DNA of 64,000 nucleotides. It comes from Craspedostauros australis (taxonomy: Eukaryota). The notes under the pieces were generated by a model. The model made no database searches and was not told the DNA's origin. It was given only the letters and a program-made list of their open reading frames with translations. The stretch is from contig JALAGF010005068.1 of assembly GCA_030167865.1 (NCBI GenBank), forward strand, positions 1 to 64,000, in the 5' to 3' direction. Below are positions 3,520-62,729 of the stretch, in pieces (positions within the stretch are counted from its first letter, which is position 1; each line of letters starts with the position of its first letter). The position numbers and the translations under genes were made by a program.

Positions 3520-3705
3520 TGACATGTCGGTGACATGTCGGTGACATGTCGGAGAAGTGTCAGAGAGGATTGGAGAAGTGTCAGAGGGGATCGGAGAAGT
3601 GTCAGAGAGGATCGGAGAAGTGTCAGAGAGGATCAGAGAAGTGTCAGAGAGGATCGGAGAAGTTTCAGAGAGGATCGGAGAAGTGTCAAAGAGGATCGGA
3701 GATGT
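3520..3705. repeat. Minisatellite: 3 x 11-bp TGACATGTCGG followed by ~7 x 21-bp GTCAGAGAGGATCGGAGAAGT
   Basis: Read directly; produces the periodic ORFs (CQRGSEK)n, (SVREDRR)n and (SDTSPIL)n. Confidence 0.9.
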
Positions 3706-4158
3706 CCCAGGATGAGAATCTGGGATAGCAGTCAAGTAAGCTGTTCACGTGAAGAATGGGAGACTGGGATCCGATCGAATGAACCGAGCCAAGTGATGCT
3801 TGCGACTCGGCGATGTCTAAGCCAACGAAACTATCGGTGGGAGGACAACGTGATGAGTGCACGGGCATGGGGCACTCGGTGGTGCGTGCATGTCCATGAT
3901 GAATTCATAATGAAGGGAAGATGAATGCATGCTAGACCAACAGATGGACCCATGGAGGTCTCAGGAGGAGATTGGACTTTGAAAGATGAGAGCAATGAAG
4001 AGCTCACAGTTCAGAGAAGTAGAGTCTAACAAACAATTAGCTTGCTACTATCATCACCACCCCGGATTTCCAACAGATCAGATCGGAAGATTTTGATCCA
4101 AAACAAGAATTTCTCCCATCGGAGGAAGACACCGTGTTCGGTGATAGTCTGTCCCTAA

Positions 4159-5632
4159 TTGAATCTCAACTCTATTCTTGACTTCCTTCATGATCAAGGG
4201 GCGCCATGGGCCTTCAGGTCAGATGGAGCGAACGAACAAACAAGCATGGAGGTTCAGCGCACACTTCGAAACCTACACGTTGCAATGGAGAACAGCGAAC
4301 CAGAGCAGCAGAACCAGAACCCCAGCAGAGCTTCGCGCTATGAAATGGTTGAAGTACCACACGCTCGTCCTCCTCGATCGAACTGGAGCCCCACCTCGTG
4401 CATGGTTCCTCACCTGCAAGTACTTGGCCAATGTTCATAATGTGATTGCCGATGAATCCAACCGATATGCAATCCCAACAACAGTCAGGCATGACGAAAC
4501 AGTCGATATCTCACCTTCCTGCACTTCACGTTGTATGAGCAGGTATACTACATGGATCCTCACAGCTCTTTCCCAGACCCCAAGGAGCAAGTGGGTTACT
4601 GGATGGGAGTAGCACACTCCTGTGGTGATGCCCTCACGTACTACATCCTCACCGACAAGACACAACGTGTCATCATCCGCAGCGTTGTCCAGCCTGTCCA
4701 CAAGGACACCATCAACAAGTGACTCCAATTCTCACATGAACTCAACCCTCTCGTTGCTCACCCAACACCTGATGTTCCTCTCATGTTCGATGACGAACGC
4801 ATACCAATAAACACCAAGCTCAGAACATTCCGTCGAACCATACGCAGAAAGCCATGAAAGAAGGTACATCGCATCATCATGCAAGAACAGCAACAGCCAT
4901 CATCAAAGAATACAACAATCCCTGTCGCACGAGCGAAGCCATCGCAAACCAAAATTCCCAGCAACATCATCATCCCCACCGACCAACCCACGGCGATACC
5001 ACCAATCAAATCAATATCACCCACATCAACCCTACAACCACACACTGAAAGGTGTCGGAGTACCAGAATACTACCTTGGCAGAAACGTCGAATCACTGGA
5101 TACAGAATGGCAAACTCACAACATCCACACCGCACTGTCAGCCACAACATACATCACGAACTCAACCACCAAACTGGAGAAGATGCTGCAATGCACGTTC
5201 CCACATGCACAAGTCCCCATGTCTGAATCATACCAAACAGAACTTGACAATACTCCTCTGCTCAACTCAACGAATGCAAGCAAACATCGTTCCCTCATCG
5301 GAAGCGCCAACTGGATCATCACACTTGGCCGATACGACATCCAGTTTGCCGTCATGGCAGTATCCCGGTTCAGCATGGCCCCTCGCAAACGTCACATGAG
5401 AGCGATGAAGACAGTATTTGAATACCTCAACCATCGAAAGCAGGAGCGGCTATTCTGCGATCCAAACACACCACTCGTCCATCATACACTTGATGGATAC
5501 TCCAGCCAATGGCAAGAATACTACCCAGAAGCACGTGCAGAGATTCCACATACTGACATCACACCGAAAGGAGCAAAAGCAACACTGACCGTCTACGTCA
5601 ACGCAGACCACGCCCACGATTCCGTCACCAGA
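4159..5632 (+). mobile_element. pol: Degenerate Ty1/copia (CoDi-like) pol remnant: integrase core, RT C-terminus and start of RNase H; RT core missing
   Basis: Frameshifted ORFs with FRSDGANEQ...EPEQQNQNP, GYWMGVAHSCGDALTYYILT, SLIGSANWIITLGRYDIQFAV and YVNADHAHDSVTR, all homologous to the intact pol at 56528-60394; no YxDD segment present. Confidence 0.88.
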
Positions 5633-5806
5633 TGTCAACATCTAGATCAAAATTTAGGCTAACATCACACATTACTGGAACGTGATTCGACTCGATTGAT
5701 AGTACAGTCGAATGAGTCTTGATGATGCGAATGGTGCTCGGGTTCTATTGTCATCAGATATGACGTAGGCACTGATATCAGAGAATGACGTCAGAGGATC
5801 GTCGCT
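5633..5806 (+). repeat. LTR-like fragment (family C), inserted into RNase H of the upstream remnant
   Basis: Starts TGTCAAC exactly where RNase H homology stops (HDSVTR|); similar to 47195-47360. Confidence 0.65.
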
Positions 5807-6708
5807 TGTCGAGATGTACATGTGAGTATATGTCGAGATGTACGTGTATATGTGCATCGTTCACCCGTTATTCTCTCATACGCACTTGGNNNNNNNNNNN
5901 NNNNNNNNNNNNNNNNNNNNNNNNNNNNNNNNNNNNNNNGATGTACGTGTATATGTGCATCGTTCACCCGTTATTCTCTCATACGCACTTGGACGGTATA
6001 ACTATACTCGTGTCGATAGTATAATGTGATTCGTCAGAATTACAGCGGAAATGGAACACACGAAAATGAGCAAGATTTCTGGAGGAAATTTGCAATCGAC
6101 GATTTCTGAGAGAATTAGAACATCGTCCGTCCATCCATCAATGGTACCAAGAGAATCTCGAGGTACTTCCTAACTAAACCTCAGATGACGATATCATCTG
6201 ACAGACTGCTGCATCACCAATGGAACATGACATCTGGAGAGCAGAAGGACGCCTACTGACGTCGACAGGATGTCATCGTGTCACCATGTCGACATCTGTC
6301 TCCAAGTCAGAGCAGGAGGCGAAGATCCGATAACCGAAGGGCATCAGCATCATGGATACTGAAGGTGAACTTCAAATGGTAAGTACTCATGGGGTAGGAG
6401 CCAGTACTGAACGAACGGAGTGTCGAATACGGAGTACGCATCAAACACGGAGCATCGTGTAGCACGAGCACATGATGTCGAGAGAGAGAGAGAGAGAATA
6501 CAGAGAGGAGCGAGAGAGCATCTCGCATACCGACTCATAGTCGGAGACCGAATCTACAAAACAGATTGAAGCATCGAGAGCATCGTGCAAGAGAACGGGT
6601 GTACACCGAGAGGATCGGAGTAGCCAAGTAATGAAATAGCAAACGAACAACTATCAACCAACACCATCTTCCACGATTGTAGGTTACTGTGAGCGGAACT
6701 TGCCAACA
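5807..6708 (+). repeat. LTR (family B), TG...CA, spanning an assembly gap
   Basis: TGTCGAGATG...TTGCCAACA; reverse-complement homolog of 39062-39862; contains a (GA)n tract; ~50 bp duplicated either side of the N gap. Confidence 0.85.
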
Positions 6709-6924
6709 CGCATGCGAATCCATCTCCATCCTCGCCTGGACGCCTCTGGCGTTGTGAGTGTCCTGCGCAGACACCGTCCCGATCCTCCTGGTGCGAACAG
6801 AGGACTGAATCGCAGCAACCTGTAGTTTGTACGCGCGAGACTGATTTGATGATATAATTAGTGCTATCAGACTGTTAATCCAACTGCCGCTCACTATGGC
6901 CATCCACCAATCACGCCACAAATG
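6709..6924 (-). pseudogene. pol: Truncated pol N-terminus (protease motif EMDSHA), cut by the family B LTR
   Basis: In frame with the upstream gag after its TGA; ends ...QARMEMDSHA at the LTR boundary; compare RAELDSHADT in the intact element. Confidence 0.8.
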
Positions 6925-8364
6925 TCAGTTGCCGGAGCCGCTCCTCTTTGAGTCTCTGCCACCGAATGAATTGCCAGCTTGGTCGTTGCGTCCTTGGGAC
7001 TGCTTGGTGAGCTGGTCGACTGTCTGCAACAGGTTTTGCTCACGCTTGCTCTGCTCCTCGCTCGACGTCTTGAGCTGGCTGATCTGTCGTTTGAGCTTCT
7101 TGACCTGGCGTTTGGATGGTGAGTTGGTGCTGCCTGGCCTCCTGCCACGCTGTATTGGGGGTCTGGCCTTCACGATCTCGGCATGATATGGCTTGACCTC
7201 ATCACTGAACCATTGGCTGCGGTCGTACTTCCCAATGTAGATGGAACCATCGGGTGTGATGGCTCCTACAGCGGGAGCAGGACCTTCAGCTGTGTAGCAA
7301 CCAGTCGATGTCGTTTCCGAAACATAGCAGGAGCCCTTCACTGTTGTGGACTGCTCTGGGATCTCTTTTGCAAAACGGAGAAGCACCTCCTTGTAATCAG
7401 GGACAGCTTCACCATATGAGAGCTTGAGGGCGATCTTGAATGGCTGCATGCCTGGTGCCAGGATGGATCCGAAGATGGCATCTACGATGTCTTGGTTGTG
7501 CATGGGGATGTTACACTCTTCAAGGGCGTCCACAGCTCGCTGCAGCTGGGAGGAGAACTTCTCGAAGGAGAAGTTTCTCTCGCTCTGGTAACGCATGGTC
7601 ACGATGGTCTTCTTGGCTGCAGACGCTTGCGCGTCGCAGCTGGCCTTGCTGTCGTAGCGGGCCTGCAGTGCCAGGAAGTCCTTGTGGCCATTGCGCTCGC
7701 GGATGGTGGACCGGATGTAGGTGTAGGCGTCCGAGTCTGGCGCCATGTTCTGCAGGATGACTTGATGCACAGTTGCGGCGTCCTGAATGAACTCCTCACT
7801 GGTGTGAGGTGCCAGGGCCACTGCGTTCTCCTCCCATGCGAGGTTGGAGTCCAAAGTGTCAGCCAGTTTCACTCGTATGACATACCAGACAGGGATGCCT
7901 CGGATACCAATGATGGACCGCAGGATGCTGTCCAGTCCATCGCCCCAGTGCTTCCACTCAAGCGACGACTTCAACAGGATTCCAAATGGCTTCCCGATCA
8001 ATCTGTTGCCCTTTGTGTGTCGATTCTTGGGCTGCTCGATGCGGTCCGTCGCATCCGCGATGCTGTTGAGGAATGTGGCTTGGCTGGTGCCTTCTGCAAA
8101 GGCAAACTCTTGTCGGATCCTGTGTTGGTCATCAACCCAGTGTGCCAGCGATGTCAGCCTCTTCCTGATGGCCCTGTTGATGAGGCTGGCGTTGTCTCCT
8201 TTCGCAAGTGCATCGCAGGCGTCGTCGATGGTCTTCGCTGTCTCGCCTCTCATGGTTGCCAGTCCCAGTGGATCAGGGGCGAAGATGTCCTTGACTGCGT
8301 CTCTGACTGCAGGGACGCGCAGGCCGCACCACTCGAACATCGTCTGTAACGAGATGACTGCCAT
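6925..8364 (-). CDS. gag: Gag-like protein of a CoDi-type Ty1/copia retrotransposon (479 aa)
   Basis: GIRGIPVWYVIR, RNGHKDFLALQARY and FSFEKF align with GALDTPLSYVIR, RNGRAAFIALKEHY and FSFERY of the gag at 60431-61918. Confidence 0.85.
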   Translation of the reverse strand: MAVISLQTMFEWCGLRVPAVRDAVKDIFAPDPLGLATMRGETAKTIDDACDALAKGDNASLINRAIRKRLTSLAHWVDDQHRIRQEFAFAEGTSQATFLNSIADATDRIEQPKNRHTKGNRLIGKPFGILLKSSLEWKHWGDGLDSILRSIIGIRGIPVWYVIRVKLADTLDSNLAWEENAVALAPHTSEEFIQDAATVHQVILQNMAPDSDAYTYIRSTIRERNGHKDFLALQARYDSKASCDAQASAAKKTIVTMRYQSERNFSFEKFSSQLQRAVDALEECNIPMHNQDIVDAIFGSILAPGMQPFKIALKLSYGEAVPDYKEVLLRFAKEIPEQSTTVKGSCYVSETTSTGCYTAEGPAPAVGAITPDGSIYIGKYDRSQWFSDEVKPYHAEIVKARPPIQRGRRPGSTNSPSKRQVKKLKRQISQLKTSSEEQSKREQNLLQTVDQLTKQSQGRNDQAGNSFGGRDSKRSGSGN

Positions 8365-8919
8365 CTTGTTGGTGGAGCGATGTTGGATGCTGCCAACCTG
8401 CTCGCTCGATCCGTTGGTTGATCAACACCAACGTCCCTCTCTCGGTGTTTTCGGGATGCTCGGCGTTCGTAGCTGCGCGCCGTTCCCGTCTCCTCGTCTG
8501 TCTGCGTGTAGCACAGCAGGGAAATGATAAAAAGAATGAATTCTGATGCTTGCAAGCTGGTAGGTGCTGCAAAGGAGAGACCTCAAGACACACAGAAGAC
8601 GATCCTATCTAGCGTTAGTGGCTGTTGTTGTTGTTGCTGCTGCTGTTTCGACCTGTGGTCCTCGAAATTGTGTGTTCTCTCCTGCTGTGACAGGATTCTG
8701 TTGCTGACACATGCTCACGTACGAAACTGCTACACCGTTGGCGCGTAGGAGTCATTGCACAAGACCAGATGACTTCAACGGTCGACGGACAGACGGTGCG
8801 ACCCGTATGATCCCAAAACTCGTTCTCCACGAACAATCCTGTTCTTGGGGCCTGCACACCAATCGCCAACCCACACACAAACAGCTCAAGCGAGTCCCGC
8901 GACCTGTGTGTTCCCACCA

Positions 8920-39061: not shown

Positions 39062-39862
39062 TGTTAGCAAGTTCCGCTCACGGTAACCTACGATCATGGA
39101 AGATGGTGTTGGTTGATAGTCGTTCGTTTGCTATTTCATTACGTTGGCACTCTGATCCTCTCGGTGTCTGTCCGTTCTCTTCCCCAATGCTCTTGGTGCT
39201 TCAATCTATTTTGTAGATTCAGACTCTGACTATGAGTTGGTGTGCAAGATGCTCTCTCGCTATTCTTTGTATTCTCTATCTCTCTCTCTCTCAATATTGT
39301 GTGCTCATGCTACACGATACTTCATGTTTGATGCTTGCTCCACATTTGACACTCCGTTCGTTCACTACTGGTTCCTACTCCATGACTACTTACCATTTGA
39401 ACTTCACCTTCAGTATCCATGATCTTGATGCCCTTCGGTCATCGGATCTTCACCTTCTGCTCTGACCTGGAGACAGATGTCAACGTGGTGACACAATGAC
39501 ATCCTGTCAACGTCAGTAGGCATCCTTCTGCTCTCCAGATGTCACATTCCATTGGTGATGCAGTGGTCTGTCAGATGATATTGTCATCTGAGGTTTAGTT
39601 GGGAGGTACCTCGAGATTCTCTTGGTACCATTGATAGATGGACGGACGATCTTCCAATTCTCTCAGAAATCGTCGATTGCAAATTTCCTCCAGAAATTCT
39701 GCTCATTTTCGTGTGTTCCATTTCCCCTGTAATTCTGACGAATCACAGCATACTATCGACACGAATGTAGTTATACCGTGCAAGTGCGTATGAGAGAATA
39801 ACGGGTGAACGATGCACATATACTCGTACATCTCGACATATACTCACATGTACATCTCGACA
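39062..39862 (-). repeat. 3' LTR (family B, 801 bp, TG...CA) of a truncated Ty1/copia element
   Basis: Homologous to 5807-6708; preceded on the minus strand by purine tract AGGAAGGG and an RNase H C-terminus. Confidence 0.9.
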
Positions 39863-47194: not shown

Positions 47195-47360
47195 TGTCAA
47201 CGTCTAGATCGAAATCAGGCTAATATCACAACTGACTGAAATGTGATTCAACGTGATTGTTAGTATAGTCAGATGAGTCTTGATGATGCAAATGGTGTTC
47301 AGATTCTACTGTCATTGGAACTGATGTTGGGACTGACATCAGAGATGACATCAGAGGATC
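47195..47360 (+). repeat. LTR-like fragment (family C)
   Basis: TGTCAACGTCTAGATC...CAGAGGATC, similar to 5633-5800. Confidence 0.65.
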
Positions 47361-49282
47361 AGACACTGAGATCCAATGTTAGAACCTAATCGTAGATGGG
47401 TTTGAAGATACCGCACCGAGAACGTAGAGTGATCAAGTCGTTGTTGTTGGTGAGGAGAGTGTTTGTTTACNNNNNNNNNNNNNNNNNNNNNNNNNNNNNN
47501 NNNNNNNNNNNNNNNNNNNNNNNNNNNNNNNNNNNNNNNNNNNNNNNNNNNNNNNNNNNNNNNNNNNNNNNNNNNNNNNNNNNNNNNNNNNNNNNNNNNN
47601 NNNNNNNNNNNNNNNNNNNNNNNNNNNNNNNNNNNNNNNNNNNNNNNNNNNNNNNNNNNNNNNNNNNNNNNNNNNNNNNNNNNNNNNNNNNNNNNNNNNN
47701 NNNNNNNNNNNNNNNNNNCTTCTCACGATGTTGCTAGTAGTACGATCACACGATTGATCGTATTCACTTGAGAAGGTCATGGCAAGATTCGCACGTGTCA
47801 CATCCAAGATCCAAGTCTGTCCTGATTGGGCAGATTGGCTCATCTTGGCAAGAAATCAATTTCCGCGACATTTTGGATCTGTGATTGAGGGAAAACGATT
47901 CTTGCGACGCGAAATGCGACACAAATTTGACACAACGGATTTTCGACCAAAATTTCCGTTCGGAACGGAAAAGGTATAAAAAGTGGAGATTTCTGATTGG
48001 TCGACGGGTGTCGCTATTGTTAGAGATTTAGCGTGCGCTAATATCCAAGGAATCAAGATCATGTGATAGTCGTGATATTCTGACATGTCCAGTGACACCA
48101 GGTGCATCAGTGGGCATGTGGTAACAGCAATTAGGAGACAGCCTTATGATGGCAGGGATGATGTATGCATCCTGCTGACATTGACAGGCCAAGATATATT
48201 GACACCATGAGAGTCCAAGATGAGACAAGATCAGACAGAGATGAGGAAAGACCCAAAGGGGAGAATAGCATGAGATACTGCGCAATCAGCATGACAACCT
48301 TGGGCAACAAAGTAGAGAGAATTCATGATGGACCACAATGGCATTGAACAGAACAGTAGGAAGACCTGATGATGAACCACAACAGAATCAGGAAAGATAG
48401 CAGAAATAGTGCAAGAATGCACCAACCTGGGATGAATGAGATCTTGTTCTCACAATCTTATCAATCATCAATTGACTACAACTACCATAACTTAGCAAAA
48501 CCAAAGACCAAACATAGCAGACTCCACCTGATGGATTGATCAGCCTGGCAGTGTAGTAAGTGTAGTGTTTGGTGCCCTGACCTGTATGCAATTGTTGATT
48601 ATCAAGGACCTATCATTGTCATTGATCCATGGCAGATGAAGACTATCAGTAAGTATCTGGCATCATCAGTTGTACATATGACAAGTCCAATGCAATAGAA
48701 CACTCTCTAGGGTAGAGTCCTGTACCATCTCTCTCTCTCTCTCTCTCTGCAGATTGTTATGTACCGTGGAACAGTGTTTCAGCCCGCTTTCACCGAAGGA
48801 ACTGGATCGTCCAAGAAAGGAACATCCGGGTCGCATGAATCGAACTGCATTCCAACGAAATGAGCAAAAGTTCATTCCGACAATCCGAAACCTCGTCCCA
48901 AACACAACCCACACAACACGACGCAACGCAATACCCATGGCGACGCAACCAAACACAGCACAACCAGACCATTTCCACCACACACTTTTGTGCAACCATT
49001 TCACCTGCTCCATACCACTCCACGAGCACACACAACCGTACGATTAGTCCCTCACCTGAGCGGTTGCTTCCTTCCGCCAAGAACAGAGGTGACATCAGAT
49101 ATCATCGACGCTTGCTTGCTGGCGATAGGAGTAGTGTGGCACAGAAATTTCACGCAATTGGAAAGCACAACAACGTGACTGCTGCTCGTTCTTGGCAGCA
49201 GCGCAAGCAAGACTTGCTCTCATCAAACAAGCGAAGGCGAGAAGTGAAGCAAAGGAAGACATTCGGCAAAGAGATTATCGAC

Positions 49283-53972: not shown

Positions 53973-55877
53973 TCAGTCGAATCCATTCTCCAACTTCTCC
54001 AAGATTTCATCCCATGATGAGACGTTCTTGAGCAGCCTGTGGAAGTCAACACTGCAAAACTCACGCCTTTGGTACGCCGTCCGTTCAAATGAGGATCGAT
54101 GTTGAACTTCGCCGTTCGGGGAACGGAACCAGGCTGGCATCCAGTTGGCTTCCACGGCAAGCGAGATGTTGAGAAGGTGTTCCAACGACGTATTCGAAGG
54201 GCACCACAACGGCAGGTCGACCATGGTTTTGTTCAGAGTGCGTTGGTGATACTGCGCCAAATCATTCGCCATGTCGACCCTCGTCTTGTTGGCCTGGACC
54301 TGCTGAGAGATGAATCCTCGTTTGGCGGCCATGAAGACGATGTCGTGGTAGCAGAACCAGGCGACGTTGCGCATGTTCAGGGGTGGGTTGTCGGTCATGT
54401 TCTGCAGGTACGCGCAGGCGTTGGGCGCATCCTGCACAAAATCGCACATCAATTGCTGCGTGATGTGGCGTTGTTTGTTGTGGACATTCAAAACGTGATA
54501 GGCGAAACCGCCGTTGCCCCAGGTCTGTATGGAGCCATCGATGAAGGTGTACACGCTGGTTACAATGTAGCTGTCCTTGCGTCCGTCTTTGGGCAGCGTG
54601 CACCACCGAAGGGCCTCCGTGATCATCGACCATGTCCGAAGCTGCAGCTTGCCGCCGTCCGAAGGCCATTTGCCATCCTCGCGGCCTCGTTCAATGTTGC
54701 GGCCTTTGTCCTGCTTGATGCTGCTGAGCATCCAGTCGAAGACCCGTCGATAGGTCATGACCACGGTGACGTTCCATCCATGAAACACGTCGTTCAGATT
54801 GTCAAAGAAGACCGGGTTGTAGAGGGCACCTTTGTGGTATCGTGATCTCCAGGAGTACGTTTCATCGCTGATGATCAGGGATATTGCATCATTCCTCAGC
54901 TCGTCCAACAAGTTCTGTGTGCTCCTGATACACTGGGGGACTGGGAGCAAGAGCCGTCGCGATGGGACGGAAATTGACGTGTTGGACATGTTGGACGTGT
55001 TGAATGCGGTGGTGTTGTTCGGGAATTCAGTTCGCGTCTTTTGGTTCAAATAGTTTGTGTAATCAAGATGCATGCAACTGGCATTCCACAACCCTTCGAT
55101 GGCTGACATCTTGTGCCCTTTGTATTGCCCTTTGAAATAACCCCGTCCCCAGAATATGTAGTTGTCCTGAGCCAGTATTCCGTTCATCTGCAGCTCTGCT
55201 AAGTTGCCTTGCATGGTCGTGGTTGCCGTTTTGGATGGTCCAACGTGAAGGATGAGCTGGGGCATGCGATCGCCGCCGCCACCGGTGCTGCTGCTACGTG
55301 CATGGTGATAAGTTGTGTCCAGTGGCATGGGCGTGGGCGTGGGCTTGAGCTTGAGCTTGGGCTTTGATGTTGATATTGGCATTGGTGCTGGCGATGACTT
55401 GGCTGGCTGGATGTCCGCTCGTTCTACATCGCGCTTTCCCAACTGCGTACGAGTACTGAGTTGTGAATTGATGGGTGTTTCGATGGATACGTCAATAGCT
55501 GTGCCCGTAATCGTGTGTCTCTGCTCGCCACCGCTGTAAATATGATCACGAGTGTCGCCATTGTTCTCGTCTGTGTCATGCATGATTCCTCCAAGCATGG
55601 CAGGTTGATCGATTTTCGTTGTCTTGAACATGGTGAAACCTTCCATGACCGCAACGATGACGATGATGACCAAAGTCTGCGCGGACCATTGCCTGCGCTT
55701 GCGCTGTGCTTTCGTTTCTCCATTCTTGATGTTGTTATCGCTGGCAGTGCTGCTCGTGCTGAGGCGACTCTTGACTGCAGCCTTTGTTGTGCGAGTGTGC
55801 AGCTCAGAGCACATGCTACGAGTAGCGTGTCCGCCAGTCGCATTAGTATCGACGCCATGCTTGGAACTGTGCTTCAT
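53973..55877 (-). CDS. Type II membrane sulfotransferase-like (P-loop fold) protein
   Basis: TM segment LVIIVIVAVM; LILHVGPSKTATTTMQ (5'-PSB-like), IISDE, VVMTYRR. Confidence 0.75.
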   Translation of the reverse strand: MKHSSKHGVDTNATGGHATRSMCSELHTRTTKAAVKSRLSTSSTASDNNIKNGETKAQRKRRQWSAQTLVIIVIVAVMEGFTMFKTTKIDQPAMLGGIMHDTDENNGDTRDHIYSGGEQRHTITGTAIDVSIETPINSQLSTRTQLGKRDVERADIQPAKSSPAPMPISTSKPKLKLKPTPTPMPLDTTYHHARSSSTGGGGDRMPQLILHVGPSKTATTTMQGNLAELQMNGILAQDNYIFWGRGYFKGQYKGHKMSAIEGLWNASCMHLDYTNYLNQKTRTEFPNNTTAFNTSNMSNTSISVPSRRLLLPVPQCIRSTQNLLDELRNDAISLIISDETYSWRSRYHKGALYNPVFFDNLNDVFHGWNVTVVMTYRRVFDWMLSSIKQDKGRNIERGREDGKWPSDGGKLQLRTWSMITEALRWCTLPKDGRKDSYIVTSVYTFIDGSIQTWGNGGFAYHVLNVHNKQRHITQQLMCDFVQDAPNACAYLQNMTDNPPLNMRNVAWFCYHDIVFMAAKRGFISQQVQANKTRVDMANDLAQYHQRTLNKTMVDLPLWCPSNTSLEHLLNISLAVEANWMPAWFRSPNGEVQHRSSFERTAYQRREFCSVDFHRLLKNVSSWDEILEKLENGFD

Positions 55878-56181
55878 GGAGGCATCTGAGACTGTTCGGA
55901 GCAATACGTGCTCAGATCTACTCTACTCTGCTCCACTCTACTCTGATACTCTTTTGAAGTATCGGTTGGTGCCTTCTCTGAATGAGAATCCTTACGGTGT
56001 TGGGGATGACGATGTTGGTGTTGTGGTATGCTGATTGTGGTCATGGTCTGCGATGATCGATGATGACTGTCACCAGTTACATCCAAGAATGATGGAACCG
56101 TGGAAATCACGAGGGGAAATACTCTTTTCTTGTATTTTCGAACCCTTTTTGCGTCTTTCGACTGCTCTAAACTCATGGTTT

Positions 56182-56356
56182 CAAGTTACGACACACGTGA
56201 AACTGATTTAGAGTGAAAAAGAGTAAAGATGCAGATTATGAGTCTTATCGATGTCGTATGCGTCAACGTATTGGCTGCATTACTGTGTCGTCCCTGATTG
56301 GTAACAGCGCCTATCGTGTAACGCCGTTTCAACGGTTTCATACATATCCCGGTTTG
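56182..56356 (-). repeat. 3' LTR (175 bp)
   Basis: Identical by eye to 62403-62577. Confidence 0.95.
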
Positions 56357-56358
56357 GT

Positions 56359-56364
56359 CCCCTC
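56359..56364 (-). other. Short polypurine tract GAGGGG
   Basis: 2 nt (AC) upstream of the 3' LTR on the minus strand. Confidence 0.65.
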
Positions 56365-56527
56365 GATGCGCGGTGGCTGTGCTAGCCGTCGTATCGTCAC
56401 ATTTTGGTTGCATTCGGGATGTACCTGCTGCATGCCCCACACGTGGACACCACAGGGCGCTCGTCCCACCAACCATGAGCAGAGCCCATGATTGACCACC
56501 CTTGGGTACTATTGCGCAGTGCCGAGG

Positions 56528-59500
56528 TCAAAAGAGGACCCGTTGTGCTTGTTCCTTTCGTCTCGGTCCTTGTTGTTGCTTCGTGAGCATGTCGGATAGA
56601 TTGGTTTCGGATGGTTCGTGCTGTACCACCAAGATACCCGCTGCGATGCTTTCTCTGACGAAGTGATATGCGATGGCATTGGCTTTCTTCCGCAATTGTG
56701 ACTCTGGTAGTGAGGAATTGTATACCACACTCTGATTATCAACCCGTACATCCGCTGGTCCATCCAGAGGGATGCCCATCATGCGAAGCTTGTATCGCAT
56801 TCCAATGATGATCTCGGTTGCTACCTTGAGCGCCGTGAATTCGCTGCCGAATGTGGATGTCTCGATGCTGTTCTGTTTCTTGCTGTACCATAGTATCGGT
56901 GATGTGTTTAAAAACAAGAGCACGCCAGTGCGTGAGCGTCGCGTGACGCGGTCACCTGCATGATCAGCATCAACAAAGCACGTCATTTGGACTTCCTTTC
57001 CGCGTGGCGGTGGCATGTCAGCAGGTAGTTGTTCATGAGCATCAGGGTAGAAATCGTTCCAGTTGGGTTGCATCACAGGCGGTTTGTCAATGTATGCATC
57101 ATCAAAAACAAGGCGAGAACGATCGTGAGATTTGAGGTATGCGAACATATGAAAGAGAGCATGCAAATGACCGATTCGAGGCGCAACACAGTATGATGCC
57201 ATCATCGACGTTTCACAGCATATGTCAATGCGTCCGAGCTCAACAGTCCAGCGCAGGATGCCAATCAATTGCTGATAGAATGTCGTTTGCTCTGTGTCAC
57301 ACAGTTGCGATCCGTCCAATTCCGGTCGATAGTTGTTTGGTAAAACGCTGGGTGCTTTCGTCTTCAGTCGTAGATTGTGTTCGGTGAGGTATTTGGTGAC
57401 GATCTTGAGAGCGGATTTGATGTATTCTTGTGAGCCCATGCTCCATTTGGGGCGTGATGGATCGGCAGTGAGGTGGAATTGTGAGATAGTAGATCCCAGA
57501 TAGGTTGTTGGAGGGCCAATGGAACTCGGTTTGAGGAAAAAGTGTGAGTCAATCGCATCAAGGATGCGTCGTGGTTGTTTGGAGACAGCAAGGATGTCGT
57601 CGGTGTACACGAGCACGTATTCGTAATATTCTGACCCATCGCTCGCAACAGCTGGCTTCATCCAGACGTCGCTGTCAGCACGGCAGGATGTGAATCCCAA
57701 CGAATCGCGTAGTGTCTCGGCCAAATGTGCTCTCCATGCTGCTCCACTTGATTTCAATCCATACAGGGCCCAACAAATGATTGCGATCTTCCCTTGGTCG
57801 GATCCGAACTCCGGACCACATCGTGTGTATATGCGTTCCCGGCATGGGGCGTTGAGGTATGCATTCTGAACATCCGCGGCAAGGATGTCCAAGTCGTTGA
57901 GTGCAGCGATCAAGAATGCAATGCGTACGCTTTCGCGTGACACCACACTCGCGTATGTGATCGTCGCAGGCGTTTCCGTCATGTGTCCCCCAGCGACAAG
58001 TCGCGCCTTTCTTGTGAGGTCCACCTTGATGGCGAATATCATGTGGCATTCCATGTATTGGTAGCCCACAGGATCGGGAGTATCAAGCTCCTTGATATCA
58101 AATGCTGTTTGCACGGCCTTCATCTCTTTTGCAATAGCTTGTCGCCACAGATCCGTGCCTGTAGCTGCATCGATCGCAAGTGCGTGACGCACTGAGGTAG
58201 GGAGCTCCACGCCAAACATCTCATTCTTTCGGACGTGTCGCCGCTTCGTTGCCATGATGATGCGTTGTCGTTTACGTAGGGTATGTGGCACCCACCACTT
58301 GAATGCAGGTTCGTTGACGAGCTTGTTGTCTGCAGCGTATTCGGCAACGCGTACTGGGTCGGCTTCTTTTGCGTCGCGTAGGTGGATCCAGGATGTGGAC
58401 CCGTCCTTCCATCGGATACAGAGCTTCCAGCCTTTTGTCGATTTGGAATGAGGAGAAGGAGAAGAAACAGAGGGCAAACGTTTGTGATCGATGATTTCGT
58501 CCATCAGCACAGTCGTGTATCCGTCGTCATCGATGCGCGCGTAGATGTTTTCCGCAATTTGGTTGGCGCTGAACACCTCGTGATGTCCATCGAGAAATTC
58601 AACTTCGTATTGGGCAGTGTCAAGCATAGGATTGGGATGCGAGCGGCCGATGAGGTTGCCTTCTGTGTCTCGTTTGCGTTGTTTGACTGTTCCATGTTGC
58701 ATCTCGTCCCCTGTCGGTAGAATGACTTTGGTTGCAATGTATTTGTCGAAAGTCGCGCTGTCAACATCGTCTGGTTCCACGATGTGTTCCAATGGTTCGG
58801 TGTTCTGCAGAATGGCAATGTCTGCTGCCGTATCATCAACGTCGTCGCCATTGTCGTCGATTGTGATGCCTTCCATTCGTTGCTTCCATTTGGATCGAAG
58901 TGTGTCCATGAATTCGTTGCACTTGTGTGCAATTACGTCGCTGTGTGTGTCATCGTGTGAGAGAGGTAAAACAGAGGATTTAGAAACAACAACGCCATTG
59001 GCAGTGAGGATGTACGAGCACATGGCATCACCAACAGAACGGCTTGGCCCGAGGTAGCGACCAAGTTGCTTGACGTTCATTGACGCGTCTTGGATGTTGA
59101 TATACCACACGAAGTCAAACCAGCCGAATTCAGCAATGTGAGAGATGTCAGCAGTGTCACCGGACAAGATGGTGGCCGGTGTCTCGCCGTGAAGATCATG
59201 GATGGCGAGTGCAGTGTGGCTGCGTATCTCAGCACAGTATTCGAAGCAGTAGTCCCACAGGTACTCCGGTGTTTCTGTCGAGGTCATCAACCGTCGGTAA
59301 TGTCGTCGCAGTTCGCGGATGGTGGCTTCTGCCTTGTTCTGATTGTGGATGTATGCTTCGATTGGTCGGATGGAGACTTGTGCTCTATGTAGCTTGCGAC
59401 GGAATTCGCCAGCTACGAGCTCTTTGGCGTTGTCAGGGATGATGGTGTGTGGGATACCGTGGTCACGAAACAGTTCGTCGAGTGTGCGATGTGCTTCCTT

Positions 59501-60394
59501 GCGTTCTGCCATTGGGTACACCCGGACCCAGTGAAATGGGGTGCAGTAGATCATGGCGCATTTGTTGCCGCGAATCGATTTGGTCTTTGCGTGCATGGTG
59601 TCGGCGTATAATTGGGTGTTGAGCCGACGATATCGTAGTTGCATGGCATATGGGTTGAGGCGGCGTGTTCCCGACGAATGACGAAAGTCGCGGATGGCTA
59701 GTTGTGTTGTTGCTTCAAGAGTGCGTGATGCGGCTTCCGTTCCGATACGCCAACGTTGTGCGAGGACATCGGGTGTGATAGTCCCCTTTCGACTGGATGT
59801 GTGCGTGCCATGGATGTTGATGGACGATATGGTTCGTTGTGATGAGAGAGATGCTCGGATGGCATCTTCGTCGTCTCCTGACGACCATTGGGAGGGGTCC
59901 CATGTGGCCTCTTGTGTCATCATGACGTGGATGCAGTCGCGATCGGATTGGACTTCTTGTTGTGTTGGCTTCCTGATGTGGAAGTAGGATACGGTGCCTT
60001 GCAATCGTAGTGGGATGTGTAGATCGTCGTCGGACGAGACCACAGAGTGGTCTTCCGGTTTCCGTTCATGCTCTTTGATCATGAGCAGAGGAACATCATT
60101 CACGACTATACCCGCAGCCCTCATTTGATTTGGGCACAACAAAGGATGTTCAAGACGAGGAAAGTAGATCGATTGTGGAAAGAAAAGAATAAATGTTTGA
60201 TATGTAATTGGATCATCGTATGCTACCGCAGCTGTGACGATTGGTGCATTATCGATGGATCCAAGTGAGTCAATAAAAGGGGTTGCAGTGACGGTTTGAT
60301 CGGTCTGATGCACAATGTACGCAGTGTCACCAAAGCAACATGTATCCGCATGCGAATCGAGCTCTGCCCGTGGGGTATCAGATGACAGAGACAT
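56528..60394 (-). CDS. pol: Pol polyprotein: protease, integrase, chromodomain-like segment, reverse transcriptase, RNase H (1288 aa)
   Basis: LDSHADT; YADT / PDNAKE / QNKAE; KARLVAGG, LYGLKSSG, YTDD; VDADHAGD, STFGSEF, VDN, SDMLTK. Confidence 0.97.
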   Translation of the reverse strand: MSLSSDTPRAELDSHADTCCFGDTAYIVHQTDQTVTATPFIDSLGSIDNAPIVTAAVAYDDPITYQTFILFFPQSIYFPRLEHPLLCPNQMRAAGIVVNDVPLLMIKEHERKPEDHSVVSSDDDLHIPLRLQGTVSYFHIRKPTQQEVQSDRDCIHVMMTQEATWDPSQWSSGDDEDAIRASLSSQRTISSINIHGTHTSSRKGTITPDVLAQRWRIGTEAASRTLEATTQLAIRDFRHSSGTRRLNPYAMQLRYRRLNTQLYADTMHAKTKSIRGNKCAMIYCTPFHWVRVYPMAERKEAHRTLDELFRDHGIPHTIIPDNAKELVAGEFRRKLHRAQVSIRPIEAYIHNQNKAEATIRELRRHYRRLMTSTETPEYLWDYCFEYCAEIRSHTALAIHDLHGETPATILSGDTADISHIAEFGWFDFVWYINIQDASMNVKQLGRYLGPSRSVGDAMCSYILTANGVVVSKSSVLPLSHDDTHSDVIAHKCNEFMDTLRSKWKQRMEGITIDDNGDDVDDTAADIAILQNTEPLEHIVEPDDVDSATFDKYIATKVILPTGDEMQHGTVKQRKRDTEGNLIGRSHPNPMLDTAQYEVEFLDGHHEVFSANQIAENIYARIDDDGYTTVLMDEIIDHKRLPSVSSPSPHSKSTKGWKLCIRWKDGSTSWIHLRDAKEADPVRVAEYAADNKLVNEPAFKWWVPHTLRKRQRIIMATKRRHVRKNEMFGVELPTSVRHALAIDAATGTDLWRQAIAKEMKAVQTAFDIKELDTPDPVGYQYMECHMIFAIKVDLTRKARLVAGGHMTETPATITYASVVSRESVRIAFLIAALNDLDILAADVQNAYLNAPCRERIYTRCGPEFGSDQGKIAIICWALYGLKSSGAAWRAHLAETLRDSLGFTSCRADSDVWMKPAVASDGSEYYEYVLVYTDDILAVSKQPRRILDAIDSHFFLKPSSIGPPTTYLGSTISQFHLTADPSRPKWSMGSQEYIKSALKIVTKYLTEHNLRLKTKAPSVLPNNYRPELDGSQLCDTEQTTFYQQLIGILRWTVELGRIDICCETSMMASYCVAPRIGHLHALFHMFAYLKSHDRSRLVFDDAYIDKPPVMQPNWNDFYPDAHEQLPADMPPPRGKEVQMTCFVDADHAGDRVTRRSRTGVLLFLNTSPILWYSKKQNSIETSTFGSEFTALKVATEIIIGMRYKLRMMGIPLDGPADVRVDNQSVVYNSSLPESQLRKKANAIAYHFVRESIAAGILVVQHEPSETNLSDMLTKQQQGPRRKEQAQRVLF

Positions 60395-60430
60395 GCTGAC
60401 GGATGTGAGCCGTCTCGTATGGCCTTGCGG

Positions 60431-61918
60431 TCAGGAACGTCCTTGTTGGTTGCGACGGGTAGCCATGCTGCCGATCCCGGCTTGGTTGTTAGTGCCAGTT
60501 TGGTTGTCGCCTTGGTTCGTAGCGTCACGTGGCCCATAATGCCCGTCTGTCTCGTCGTGAGAGCGTTTCGATGGCGTGCTCCTGCCCACCGACATGACCC
60601 CACGGCGCTTGTCTCGTTCCGCACGCATTTCAAGTGCCTTGGTCTTCTGTGCGGATGACATGACCGACCATTCGTCGGGTGAGTAGTGGCGATCCGTGAT
60701 GACCATGTTCGGATCATATTTCTTGGGTTTGCCTTGACCTCCACGGCCACCCTTGCTTGGTGTTCCATTACGGTTGCCACGACCGCCCTTGCTGCGATCC
60801 ATCGAGCCAATGGAGCGTCTGGGTGACGCGATCTGTTTGTGGTCAATGACTTCGCTCAGGACATTGATGGCCCCCGGTAGGTCTTCGCGAAGGGCTTCGT
60901 TGATCTTGATAGCAACGCATGCACTGTCGAGGCGAGAATCACGGATACCATCAAGGAAATGGCGCACTTTCGCCGCGTTCACGAGTGGTTCACCGCATCG
61001 TGCCATGTCTTCGAATGCACCTTTCATGATCTGTGCATATCGTTCGAAGGAGAACTGACGCGATTTGCCGTCATAAAAGCTGGTTGCAATCGTCTTGGAT
61101 GCTGCTGCCTTGGTGCGCGCCTGAAAGGAGTCGCTGTGATAGTGTTCTTTGAGTGCGATGAATGCTGCACGACCATTGCGTGCACGTTCGAAGCCTTGGA
61201 CCCAAGCCCATGCAGGTCCGCCATGAGTGACATGGCGAACAACCTGCCACACTTTCGCATTGTCTGCGTCGTAGCAGATACCTTCATGGATTGCACGGTC
61301 GATCAGTTCCTCCTTCATGGTGGGCACACCAAACCCATCATTGATGGCCGGTGTGCGGTCTTCGGGTTTACGTGAATCCTCACGGATCACATAGGAAAGC
61401 GGGGTGTCAAGCGCACCATGGGTGTTCTCCAAGTAGTTCTGGATGTCTTCGAGGCTGTCACGGACTCGGTCCACTTTGACCAGCCGTTCTGGCATATCCA
61501 TTTCGGTTTCCTTCTTAATGCGTTGTTCCTCAAGAAAGAGTTCCCACAATGCAACAAGGCGGTCCATTGTTGCCTCTGCTGCTGTAAACGGGCGTTGAAT
61601 GCGTTGGAAATGGAATCGTGCGTAACGTAGTTGACGCAGCTTGGTCTCATGCACCCAGCCGATGCTGATGCCTGGGTCCTTGATTTGTGGTGGTACATTG
61701 CCTTTGGCTCCTGCCTTGTAGGCGGGGTTTTCGATGAATCCACTACCATCGCAAATGCGCTTGCACAGGGCAGTAACGCCTTCATCGGTGATGGAGAGGA
61801 AGTCATCAAATTTGGTCAGGCCTTGGTCCTCAAGGGCGTCGACGATGTCATCGTCTGGGAAGCTGAGTACGTTCTTGCAATAGTCACGTATTTCGTTGGT
61901 GTTTGCAGCGGCTGCCAT
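60431..61918 (-). CDS. gag: Gag protein (495 aa)
   Basis: Position upstream of pol; PLSYVIR, RNGRAAF and FSFERY motifs; RGG-rich basic C-terminus. Confidence 0.92.
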   Translation of the reverse strand: MAAAANTNEIRDYCKNVLSFPDDDIVDALEDQGLTKFDDFLSITDEGVTALCKRICDGSGFIENPAYKAGAKGNVPPQIKDPGISIGWVHETKLRQLRYARFHFQRIQRPFTAAEATMDRLVALWELFLEEQRIKKETEMDMPERLVKVDRVRDSLEDIQNYLENTHGALDTPLSYVIREDSRKPEDRTPAINDGFGVPTMKEELIDRAIHEGICYDADNAKVWQVVRHVTHGGPAWAWVQGFERARNGRAAFIALKEHYHSDSFQARTKAAASKTIATSFYDGKSRQFSFERYAQIMKGAFEDMARCGEPLVNAAKVRHFLDGIRDSRLDSACVAIKINEALREDLPGAINVLSEVIDHKQIASPRRSIGSMDRSKGGRGNRNGTPSKGGRGGQGKPKKYDPNMVITDRHYSPDEWSVMSSAQKTKALEMRAERDKRRGVMSVGRSTPSKRSHDETDGHYGPRDATNQGDNQTGTNNQAGIGSMATRRNQQGRS

Positions 61919-62381
61919 GTTGATGATGTTCGTGTGTAATGTTGTTGCTAATGATAAGATGAAGGAAGGAAGTAGCGAAGGAAGAAAGGTTTTGTGGTGT
62001 CAAGAAAATCACACTGGGACATGGTGTATTTTCGACGTGAAAATGGTTCAACGTGTGTTTTCCGCGGTGTCGATCCGCGATGAGAAGCACAGACCGGGCA
62101 ACAAGGCACACGATCTTTTCGCTGATGACAGCGTGTGTCTCAGTAGGGATTTCCGTGTGACCTACGGTCGGTGCGTCCACCAGTGTCATCAACACCTCGC
62201 AGTGCGAACGGTGAGATTGCATCCCGTTGACGCCGGTCACATGGCGTCAACACACCATGGTCAAAGAGGATGCAGCACAGTACAAGCAGTGCCGGCTTGG
62301 TGACGGTCCACCCTCGGAGCGGGGTCCCAGTATTGTCGTCACCTCTTCAGGCGGTCCCTGCACGCTCGCACATGCCCGCAT

Positions 62382-62402
62382 GAGCGGATGGGTCTGATAA
62401 AC
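62382..62402 (-). other. Putative primer-binding site GTTTATCAGACCCATCCGCTC
   Basis: Immediately downstream of the 5' LTR; loosely similar to tRNA-iMet-type PBSs. Confidence 0.45.
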
Positions 62403-62577
62403 CAAGTTACGACACACGTGAAACTGATTTAGAGTGAAAAAGAGTAAAGATGCAGATTATGAGTCTTATCGATGTCGTATGCGTCAACGTATTGGCTGCA
62501 TTACTGTGTCGTCCCTGATTGGTAACAGCGCCTATCGTGTAACGCCGTTTCAACGGTTTCATACATATCCCGGTTTG
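62403..62577 (-). repeat. 5' LTR (175 bp)
   Basis: Identical by eye to 56182-56356. Confidence 0.95.
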
Positions 62578-62729
62578 GTTTTAGTATCGTCAAGGCCAGG
62601 AAACACATTGCAGCATCGAGTCCTCTGGACTACTGTTATTGTTGTCGTTATCGTTATCGGTATGGCGCAAGCAATTAATCAATTTTATACTCTCGCTCTC
62701 CAGACAAAGACCTTCGTTACACCTTTGCT

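Follow-up and report, generated by a model that had tools for sequence, protein, structure and literature searches.

A Ty1/copia retrotransposon family of the diatom Craspedostauros australis with CAA...TTG long terminal repeat ends and a 4-bp target site duplication

Introduction

Programs that find long terminal repeats (LTRs) make use of a terminal TG/CA motif (PMC9804982; PMC6317226), and for retroviral integrases the CA-3' tip has been termed invariant (PMC11054761). Among the Ty1/copia elements of diatoms, 23 of the 26 published CoDi families have TG/CA (PMC2806351). The non-TGCA copia elements described from lotus comprise eight types, each with T as its first base and A or T as its last (PMC9804982). 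Here, a stretch of 64,000 nt of the Craspedostauros australis genome (assembly GCA_030167865.1, contig JALAGF010005068.1, positions 1 to 64,000; hereafter the window) was analysed. It carries on its minus strand, at 56182-62577, a 6,396-bp Ty1/copia element with two 100% identical LTRs of 175 bp, which in element orientation read CAAACCGGG...GTAACTTG. The copia lineage of this element, likely of the CoDi-A/CoDi-I type, has probably switched the tips of its integrated LTRs from TG...CA to CA...TG, with its own integrase joining them in the manner proposed below.

LTR ends and target site duplications among genomic copies

The LTR search of the host genome produced at least 40 matches (64 candidates, 40 scored), 39 of which were tabulated. 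The start was CAA in all 37 loci where it was intact and the end was TTG in all 37 loci where that was intact, and both were also present in the 40th match (C4599). All six complete solo LTRs were flanked by an exact 4-bp duplication and none by a longer one. Of the five elements that had their two LTRs on a single contig, four also showed a 4-bp target site duplication (TSD); the lone exception was C4599, whose LTRs were only 84% identical and which is probably chimeric. In addition, 12 of 14 5'-LTR flanks shared a 4-mer with some 3'-LTR flank, compared to a mean of 0.9 and a maximum of 7 in 20,000 null draws. A first-pass annotation of the window had described CAA...TTG ends with a 4-bp TSD and had proposed tabulating termini and TSD length over the genomic LTR copies; the tabulation upheld both the ends and the duplication.

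The same annotation had left as an alternative a 5-bp TSD (GGTTT) with an LTR starting AAACC, which the window site taken alone also permits. This model requires a C as the fifth base of the 3' flank, which was true in 3 of 10 same-contig pairs and thus at chance level. Since the solo LTRs and four of five same-contig elements showed 4-bp duplications, the 5-bp alternative was refuted by the copy-wide tabulation of flanks. Overall, the probability that the boundaries are an artefact of true TG...CA ends, of AAACC...TTG ends with a 5-bp TSD or of mutation after insertion is practically negligible, and the identity of the LTR pair in the window copy and likewise in C2192 also stands against it.

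Element organisation

The features of the element are listed in Table 1. The LTRs lie within an exact direct repeat of 177 nt (56182-56358 / 62403-62579), and the polypurine tract (PPT) GAGGGG with AC before the 3' LTR, the GT after the 5' LTR and the GTTT flanks were as the first-pass annotation had described them.

Table 1. Features of the Ty1/copia element, in window positions
Feature	Position	Strand	Remark
TSD, 4 bp, GTTT (AAAC in element orientation)	56178..56181	.	3' side of element
3' LTR, 175 bp, CAAACC...AACTTG	56182..56356	-	
AC spacer, PPT to 3' LTR	56357..56358	-	predicted 2-nt extension of U3 cDNA end
PPT, GAGGGG	56359..56364	-	
pol frame, 1300 aa	56528..60430	-	protease, integrase, chromodomain-like segment, reverse transcriptase (RT), RNase H
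In-frame TGA dividing gag from pol	60431..60433	-	context TCC TGA CCG
gag-like open reading frame (ORF), 495 aa from ATG	60434..61918	-	gag is a label by position
Primer-binding site (PBS), GTTTATCAGACCCA, 14 nt	62389..62402	-	complements host tRNA-Ile(AAT) nt 27-40
5' LTR, 175 bp, same sequence as 3' LTR	62403..62577	-	
TSD, 4 bp, GTTT	62578..62581	.	5' side of element

The pol frame contained a protease with a DSH motif and APIV, and an integrase core with D277, D333 and E368, a DDE triad that was invariant in the pol alignment. RVT_2 was matched in Pfam at aa 791-984 (E 2.8e-16) and rve weakly at aa 301-359 (E 0.11). RNase H, for which no profile match was obtained, was placed by its position and by motifs which we take to be those of this domain. 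For the chromodomain-like segment at about aa 640-715, the sole match in the Protein Data Bank was the Rhino chromodomain and was weak (E 1.2), the nearest atlas cluster having a family was Chromo (0.77), and Pfam Chromo was matched by 0 of 25 proteins. The gag-like ORF showed no CCHC motif and no Pfam match.

The LTR pair, PBS, PPT and TSD, together with an RT of the RVT_2 type and an integrase upstream of it, which is the copia order, identify the element as Ty1/copia, an LTR retrotransposon that operates in the retrovirus manner. The typical but not universal TG...CA ends with a 5-bp TSD are replaced by CAA...TTG and 4 bp; the membership survives this because exceptions are published. Overall, the window element is a young, intact, autonomous, recently active and multi-copy Ty1/copia retrotransposon.

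Integrase conservation

The ratio of nonsynonymous to synonymous substitution (dN/dS) of the integrase against its relatives was 0.02-0.09 (computable in five of seven comparisons, the other two being saturated), with dS from 0.4 to saturated, and synonymous sites were near saturation between the CAA...TTG subfamilies. The CAA...TTG tips have thus been kept over many replication cycles, and on these comparisons they are inherited and selected and not a product of decay. The suggestion of the first-pass annotation that TG-3' ends are joined by this integrase gained support from the precise ends at many independent sites, the intact catalytic triad and the low dN/dS, from which such joining would follow.

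A motif of the integrase that tracks the tips was searched for and rejected: the Pro of the P-x-x-N loop was missing in the CAA and AGA families, yet also in one TG...CA family. The HHCC zinc-binding motif of the integrase N-terminus was found in 0 of 23 aligned CoDi-like rows, including those with canonical ends. A single-sequence AlphaFold model of the integrase (predicted local distance difference test score 35) gave no usable structure.

Related families and their tips

Subfamilies L044-L047, with integrases 82-85% identical to that of the window element, also had CAA...TTG ends, and a 4-bp TSD was found in three of their four paired elements. The L049 family (77% integrase identity) showed CAAG...TTTG in all 20 loci fetched of 40 matches; its paired element had a 4-bp TSD, as did two of three LTRs without internal flanks. 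In the same genome, the L054 family (L115-L125; 44% integrase identity) had TGA...TGA ends (12 matches) and a 4-bp TSD in 5/5 complete cases. The tips of this family are asymmetric, TG...GA, like those of Tos17, and together with the 4-bp TSD they possibly represent an intermediate state. A further family with AGAA...TTCT ends (32% integrase identity; 15 of 38 matches fetched) showed a 4-bp TSD in four of seven solo candidates. More distant lineages had TATTGG...CCAATA or TGACA...TGACA ends, a 5-bp TSD and a CG spacer. The TATTGG...CCAATA lineage (L061, L060, L057, L059 and L149) has a half-tRNA-Ile PBS as in the window element, and L061 has one single ORF of 2,254 aa.

Relatives outside this genome (44-57% pol identity) begin with GAGGGGAC directly followed by TGA, and the dinucleotide ahead of the PBS was CA in 11 of 14 loci, TA in two and GA in one. 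Their contigs are filed in prokaryotic bins; diatom-type copia sequences lie on contigs of bacterial metagenome-assembled genomes (L188-L205, L247-L259), and such contigs are probably mis-binned eukaryotic DNA. The TSD length of the outside TG...CA relatives was sought in nine fetched stretches, all of which were without a pol match. A scan of metagenomes for related loci gave one short irrelevant match and a scan of viral sequences gave none.

AC after the PPT was common to all three families with 4-bp TSDs (integrases 32-100% identical) and to the outside TG-starting relatives. The AC...GT pair also frames canonical TG...CA relatives and is thus ancestral, not special to the CAA family. The tips differ between families inside this frame of PPT-AC and GT, so it is the joined dinucleotide that changes and the AC/GT frame that stays. 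A T at position -3 was present at every end of the own-genome families with 4-bp TSDs.

In the tree, the CAA group formed a clade with support of 100/100 that was nested among public proteins, with the TG-starting rows outside. The tree was rooted at midpoint and contained every fourth of 120 listed public proteins, with no named CoDi element among its rows; L056 was on a long branch and L157, having no match, was left out. The simplest reading of these comparisons would be that AC-TGA...TCA-GT is ancestral and CAA...TTG derived.

Priming site and trimming of ends

The PBS pairs with the anticodon arm of tRNA-Ile, as in half-tRNA-Ile priming of the Bianca type, and has a C opposite position 34, which would fit inosine at A34 being read as G. 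The tRNA positions were counted by hand, and 30 of 63 tRNA matches in the host assembly, which includes plastid-type tRNAs, were fetched. The match ends before G26, a position which we take to be methylated and to block RT. A tRNA-Ile with a GAT anticodon was considered as primer and rejected, none being found by pattern search; the AAT gene with inosine fits the PBS. The PBS was degenerate in 11 of 14 5'-LTR copies, with the first 8 bases only. The full complement was seen in two unconnected parts of the copy tree, a pattern consistent with the primer sequence being copied into the PBS from time to time. Minus-strand priming by the 5' half of an inosine-edited tRNA-Ile is strongly indicated by this pairing.

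The PBS begins with the GT that follows the 5' LTR; as these two bases pair with A39-C40 in the host tRNA-Ile, the U5 end could be blunt. The ACCAA...TTGGT symmetry pointed out in the first-pass annotation is present in the sequence; as independent evidence of GT trimming it did not hold, since GT is the start of the PBS and AC...GT is ancestral. For GT to become an extension of the cDNA, the primer would have to end at nt 38, or two bases would have to be left by RNase H. At the U3 end, trimming is likely from the AC spacer and from the description of intervening dinucleotides of copia elements as trimmed (PMC2829016).

L133 was considered as a PBS copied from tRNA-iMet that keeps GT, with the primer ending at nt 38, and was rejected, as the sequence beside its LTR is another repeat, which also occurs in L208-L210. 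L207-L210 represent an unclassified repeat that begins near TTATGAGCCC, one copy of which lies directly behind a CAAG...TTTG LTR. In the canonical TGACA...TGACA family (L163, L156 and L153), comparison by eye showed the PBS GATTAAGAGTCG to be complementary to host tRNA-Lys(CTT) in its anticodon arm, which gives a second primer of the half-tRNA kind. Finally, apart from one missing base, the U5 tip CTTG is similar to the sequence complementary to nt 41-46 of tRNA-Ile, and TTTG of the L049 family fits less well; that the tip was derived from primer sequence would be speculation.

Gag-pol junction

A single in-frame TGA at the gag/pol junction was found in 27 of 31 loci, three loci being not interpretable. 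L056 and L192, the latter an outside relative, likewise had the junction TGA in frame, so that this codon is conserved in the clade. The Met ahead of the protease site is missing in the 82-85% subfamily, which makes stop-codon bypass the likeliest route to pol; pol would thus be made by bypass of the in-frame UGA. RNA structure 3' of the UGA was not above that of shuffled sequences (z 0.11).

Proposed mechanism and alternatives

In the reading considered probable, one RNA would yield both gag and, through bypass of the UGA, pol. The minus strand would be primed from the 5' half of inosine-edited tRNA-Ile, with good support from the PBS, and the plus strand at GAGGGG, which would leave AC outside the U3 end. 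The DDE integrase of the element would then strip GT, at least at the U3 end, and join the TG-3' ends with a stagger of 4 bp; ends and TSD were observed and the enzyme action is deduced from them. The last two joined bases would be free to differ between families (CA, GA, TG, CT, TA) and fixed within a family, with the outer AC/GT retained and T at -3 usually retained. Such variation within a retained frame suggests that the integrase finds its cleavage position from the distance to the end and from subterminal contacts, without reliance on an invariant CA.

Several points weigh against this reading. No integrase residue change in the aligned families cleanly tracked the CAA tips, and T at -3 is not invariant, being present at 10 of the 14 U5 ends of outside relatives. 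Of the public proteins, the roughly 20 that lie closest to the CAA group in the tree have no tips assigned, which bears on the age and breadth of the switch, and the order of tip changes would not be fixed by the tree, the branch of L056 being long. Furthermore, the end chemistry at the cDNA tips is what we infer from integrated copies. A broader form of the model, which we regard as possible while short of probable, is that throughout this diatom copia clade the integrase has abandoned the near-universal requirement for CA and takes its cutting site from the position within a T-N-N/GT frame, so that families settle on CA, GA, CT or TG. CA...TG would then be a fully inverted and unreported end type, in a clade sharing the 4-bp stagger, half-tRNA-Ile priming and UGA readthrough. 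The preferred reading and its alternatives overlap in parts, and the confidences given to them do not add to one.

Processing may instead be asymmetric, an alternative that we regard as seriously possible while short of probable: the half-tRNA would end at nt 40 and be cleanly removed, leaving U5 blunt at TTG, and only U3 would lose GT, or AC would belong to the PPT primer with no trimming at all. The exact complementarity of GT to A39-C40 speaks for it, as do the families with a GGGG-CG spacer, which have GT or GA after the LTR and no symmetry. In Ty5 and Drosophila copia the half-tRNA PBS directly adjoins the LTR, and the cDNA of Ty1 has blunt ends. However, AC after the PPT exactly mirrors GT in all three 4-bp families and in the outside relatives, and the trimming described for copia (PMC2829016) also argues against it. 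Alternatively, the integrase could be re-specified and not relaxed: by co-evolution, the enzyme of each family would have become strictly specific for the tip of that family (here TG), like a species-specific lock and key; this too is possible, with somewhat less confidence. The tips are invariant within each family (for CAA...TTG, 37/37 at each end), and the change to an identical TG at both of them is more than drift by itself would produce. Yet in the TGA...TGA family the two joined ends differ, one being CA and one GA, and the outside copies have CA, TA and GA; some integrases of the clade, at the least, therefore tolerate more than one tip.

Other sequences in the window

An element of the AGAA...TTCT family was found on the minus strand at 6709-8826, consisting of a 5' LTR (8533-8826) and about 1.9 kb of internal sequence 92% identical to L056; it is truncated, its PBS has a G-to-T change, and no second LTR was found within the window. 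Short pieces at 47376-48043 were 97-99% identical to the stretch of L056 between the pol end and the 3' LTR and are probably another repeat nested in the L056 copy. On the plus strand, 5054-5632 contains part of a distant copia element, with RT/RNase H-like sequence and 27% identity to the pol of the element described here. Inverted copies (85-99%) of a repeat of about 0.9 kb lie at 5807-6708 and 39062-39862, one of which spans an assembly gap, and 5651-5784 recurs at 47212-47345. A tandem array with a 21-nt unit occupies 3528-3731. About 250 bp past the 3' LTR, a 649-aa open frame on the minus strand (53973-55922) is a probable host gene.

Significance

Among the first 100 of 117 listed matches to CGAGGGGAC-NNA, a hand count gave 56 with CAA, 12 with AGA and 4 with TGA (control: 63 matches). 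Annotation based on the TG/CA motif would miss the CAA family, the apparent dominant family of the clade in this genome, and therefore the LTR content of diatoms may be undercounted. A motif-free search of diatom assemblies could be anchored on GAGGGGAC and GTTTATCA. Four fixed tip pairs are seen in this one clade; a single genome contains three of the four, and intact young copies are present. These pairs are a natural substitution series for the integrase contacts that read the DNA tip, a question which the lotus elements left unsettled.

Comparison with known systems

Elements moved by the DDE transposases of RAG/Transib, hAT and CACTA begin with CA and have TG-3' ends that are joined, a resemblance only, as these DNA transposons carry terminal inverted repeats, go through hairpin chemistry and lack both RT and LTR. 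Among retrotransposons, membership of the element in CoDi-A is likely (PMC2774666; PMC5348765). Shared with CoDi-A/CoDi-I are the order of protease, integrase and RT, the lack of a gag CCHC array, the xPIV protease pattern (LPIV in PMC2774666, here APIV), two ORFs and a short LTR (PMC2806351; PMC2774666). A chromodomain-like integrase tail may also be shared, and the nearest named relatives are in pennate diatoms; within the best 120 of 610 relatives by pol, organism names were limited to Cylindrotheca and Fistulifera. In contrast, the one TSD quoted for CoDi-A/CoDi-I is of 5 bp (ACAAG) compared to the uniform 4 bp here, and the sections available do not mention CAA...TTG with a 4-bp TSD, a half-tRNA-Ile PBS or a UGA junction for CoDi.

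The ends could already have been described as those of CoDi3.2, 4.2 or 4.3 in Additional file 1 of Maumus 2009 or in Repbase/GyDB, which we consider rather unlikely. TG/CA is missing in these three families (PMC2806351), and CoDi4.3 belongs to CoDi-A (PMC2774666), the group that the window element resembles. On the other hand, the main text of PMC2806351, as far as available, names no motif in place of TG/CA and describes the TSDs as heterogeneous, and no Phaeodactylum-named protein was among the best 120 of 610 relatives, most entries being without a name. The literature searched, mostly open-access and with Repbase and GyDB outside its scope, contained no report of CA...TG LTR ends, nor of UGA bypass or half-tRNA-Ile priming for CoDi, and the available parts of bioRxiv 2025.10.24.684338 and 2021.07.27.453949 had nothing on CoDi ends or on these two features. 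The novelty suggested by the first-pass annotation is lowered and not removed: non-TG/CA ends are already known in copia, and TG/CA is missing in CoDi3.2, 4.2 and 4.3, whose ends are absent from the main text of PMC2806351.

For single features, counterparts are found in more distant systems. The plant copia element Bianca (PMC6317226) also has a PBS that complements an inosine-edited half tRNA-Ile, but it differs in lineage and host and has no tie to changed tips, so that the likeness is in priming only. Tca2 of Candida albicans (PMC2194720) likewise has an in-frame UGA between gag and pol that must be bypassed; no stable structure lies 3' of the UGA in the element here, where bypass is predicted. 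In the Zam-clade errantiviruses, with AGTTA...TAATT/TAACT ends (PMC3601003), the integrase also joins a non-CA 3' end; these belong to the Ty3/gypsy superfamily and join T-3' instead of G-3', which parallels the AGAA...TTCT sister family. The non-TGCA copia elements of plants (Tos17 TGGA, Hopscotch TACA, lotus TGCT; PMC9804982) resemble the element in being transposition-competent with non-canonical tips and short LTRs. However, the lotus set shows one or two tip changes, whereas in CA...TG of the window element all four positions are changed and the inverted repeat is restored.

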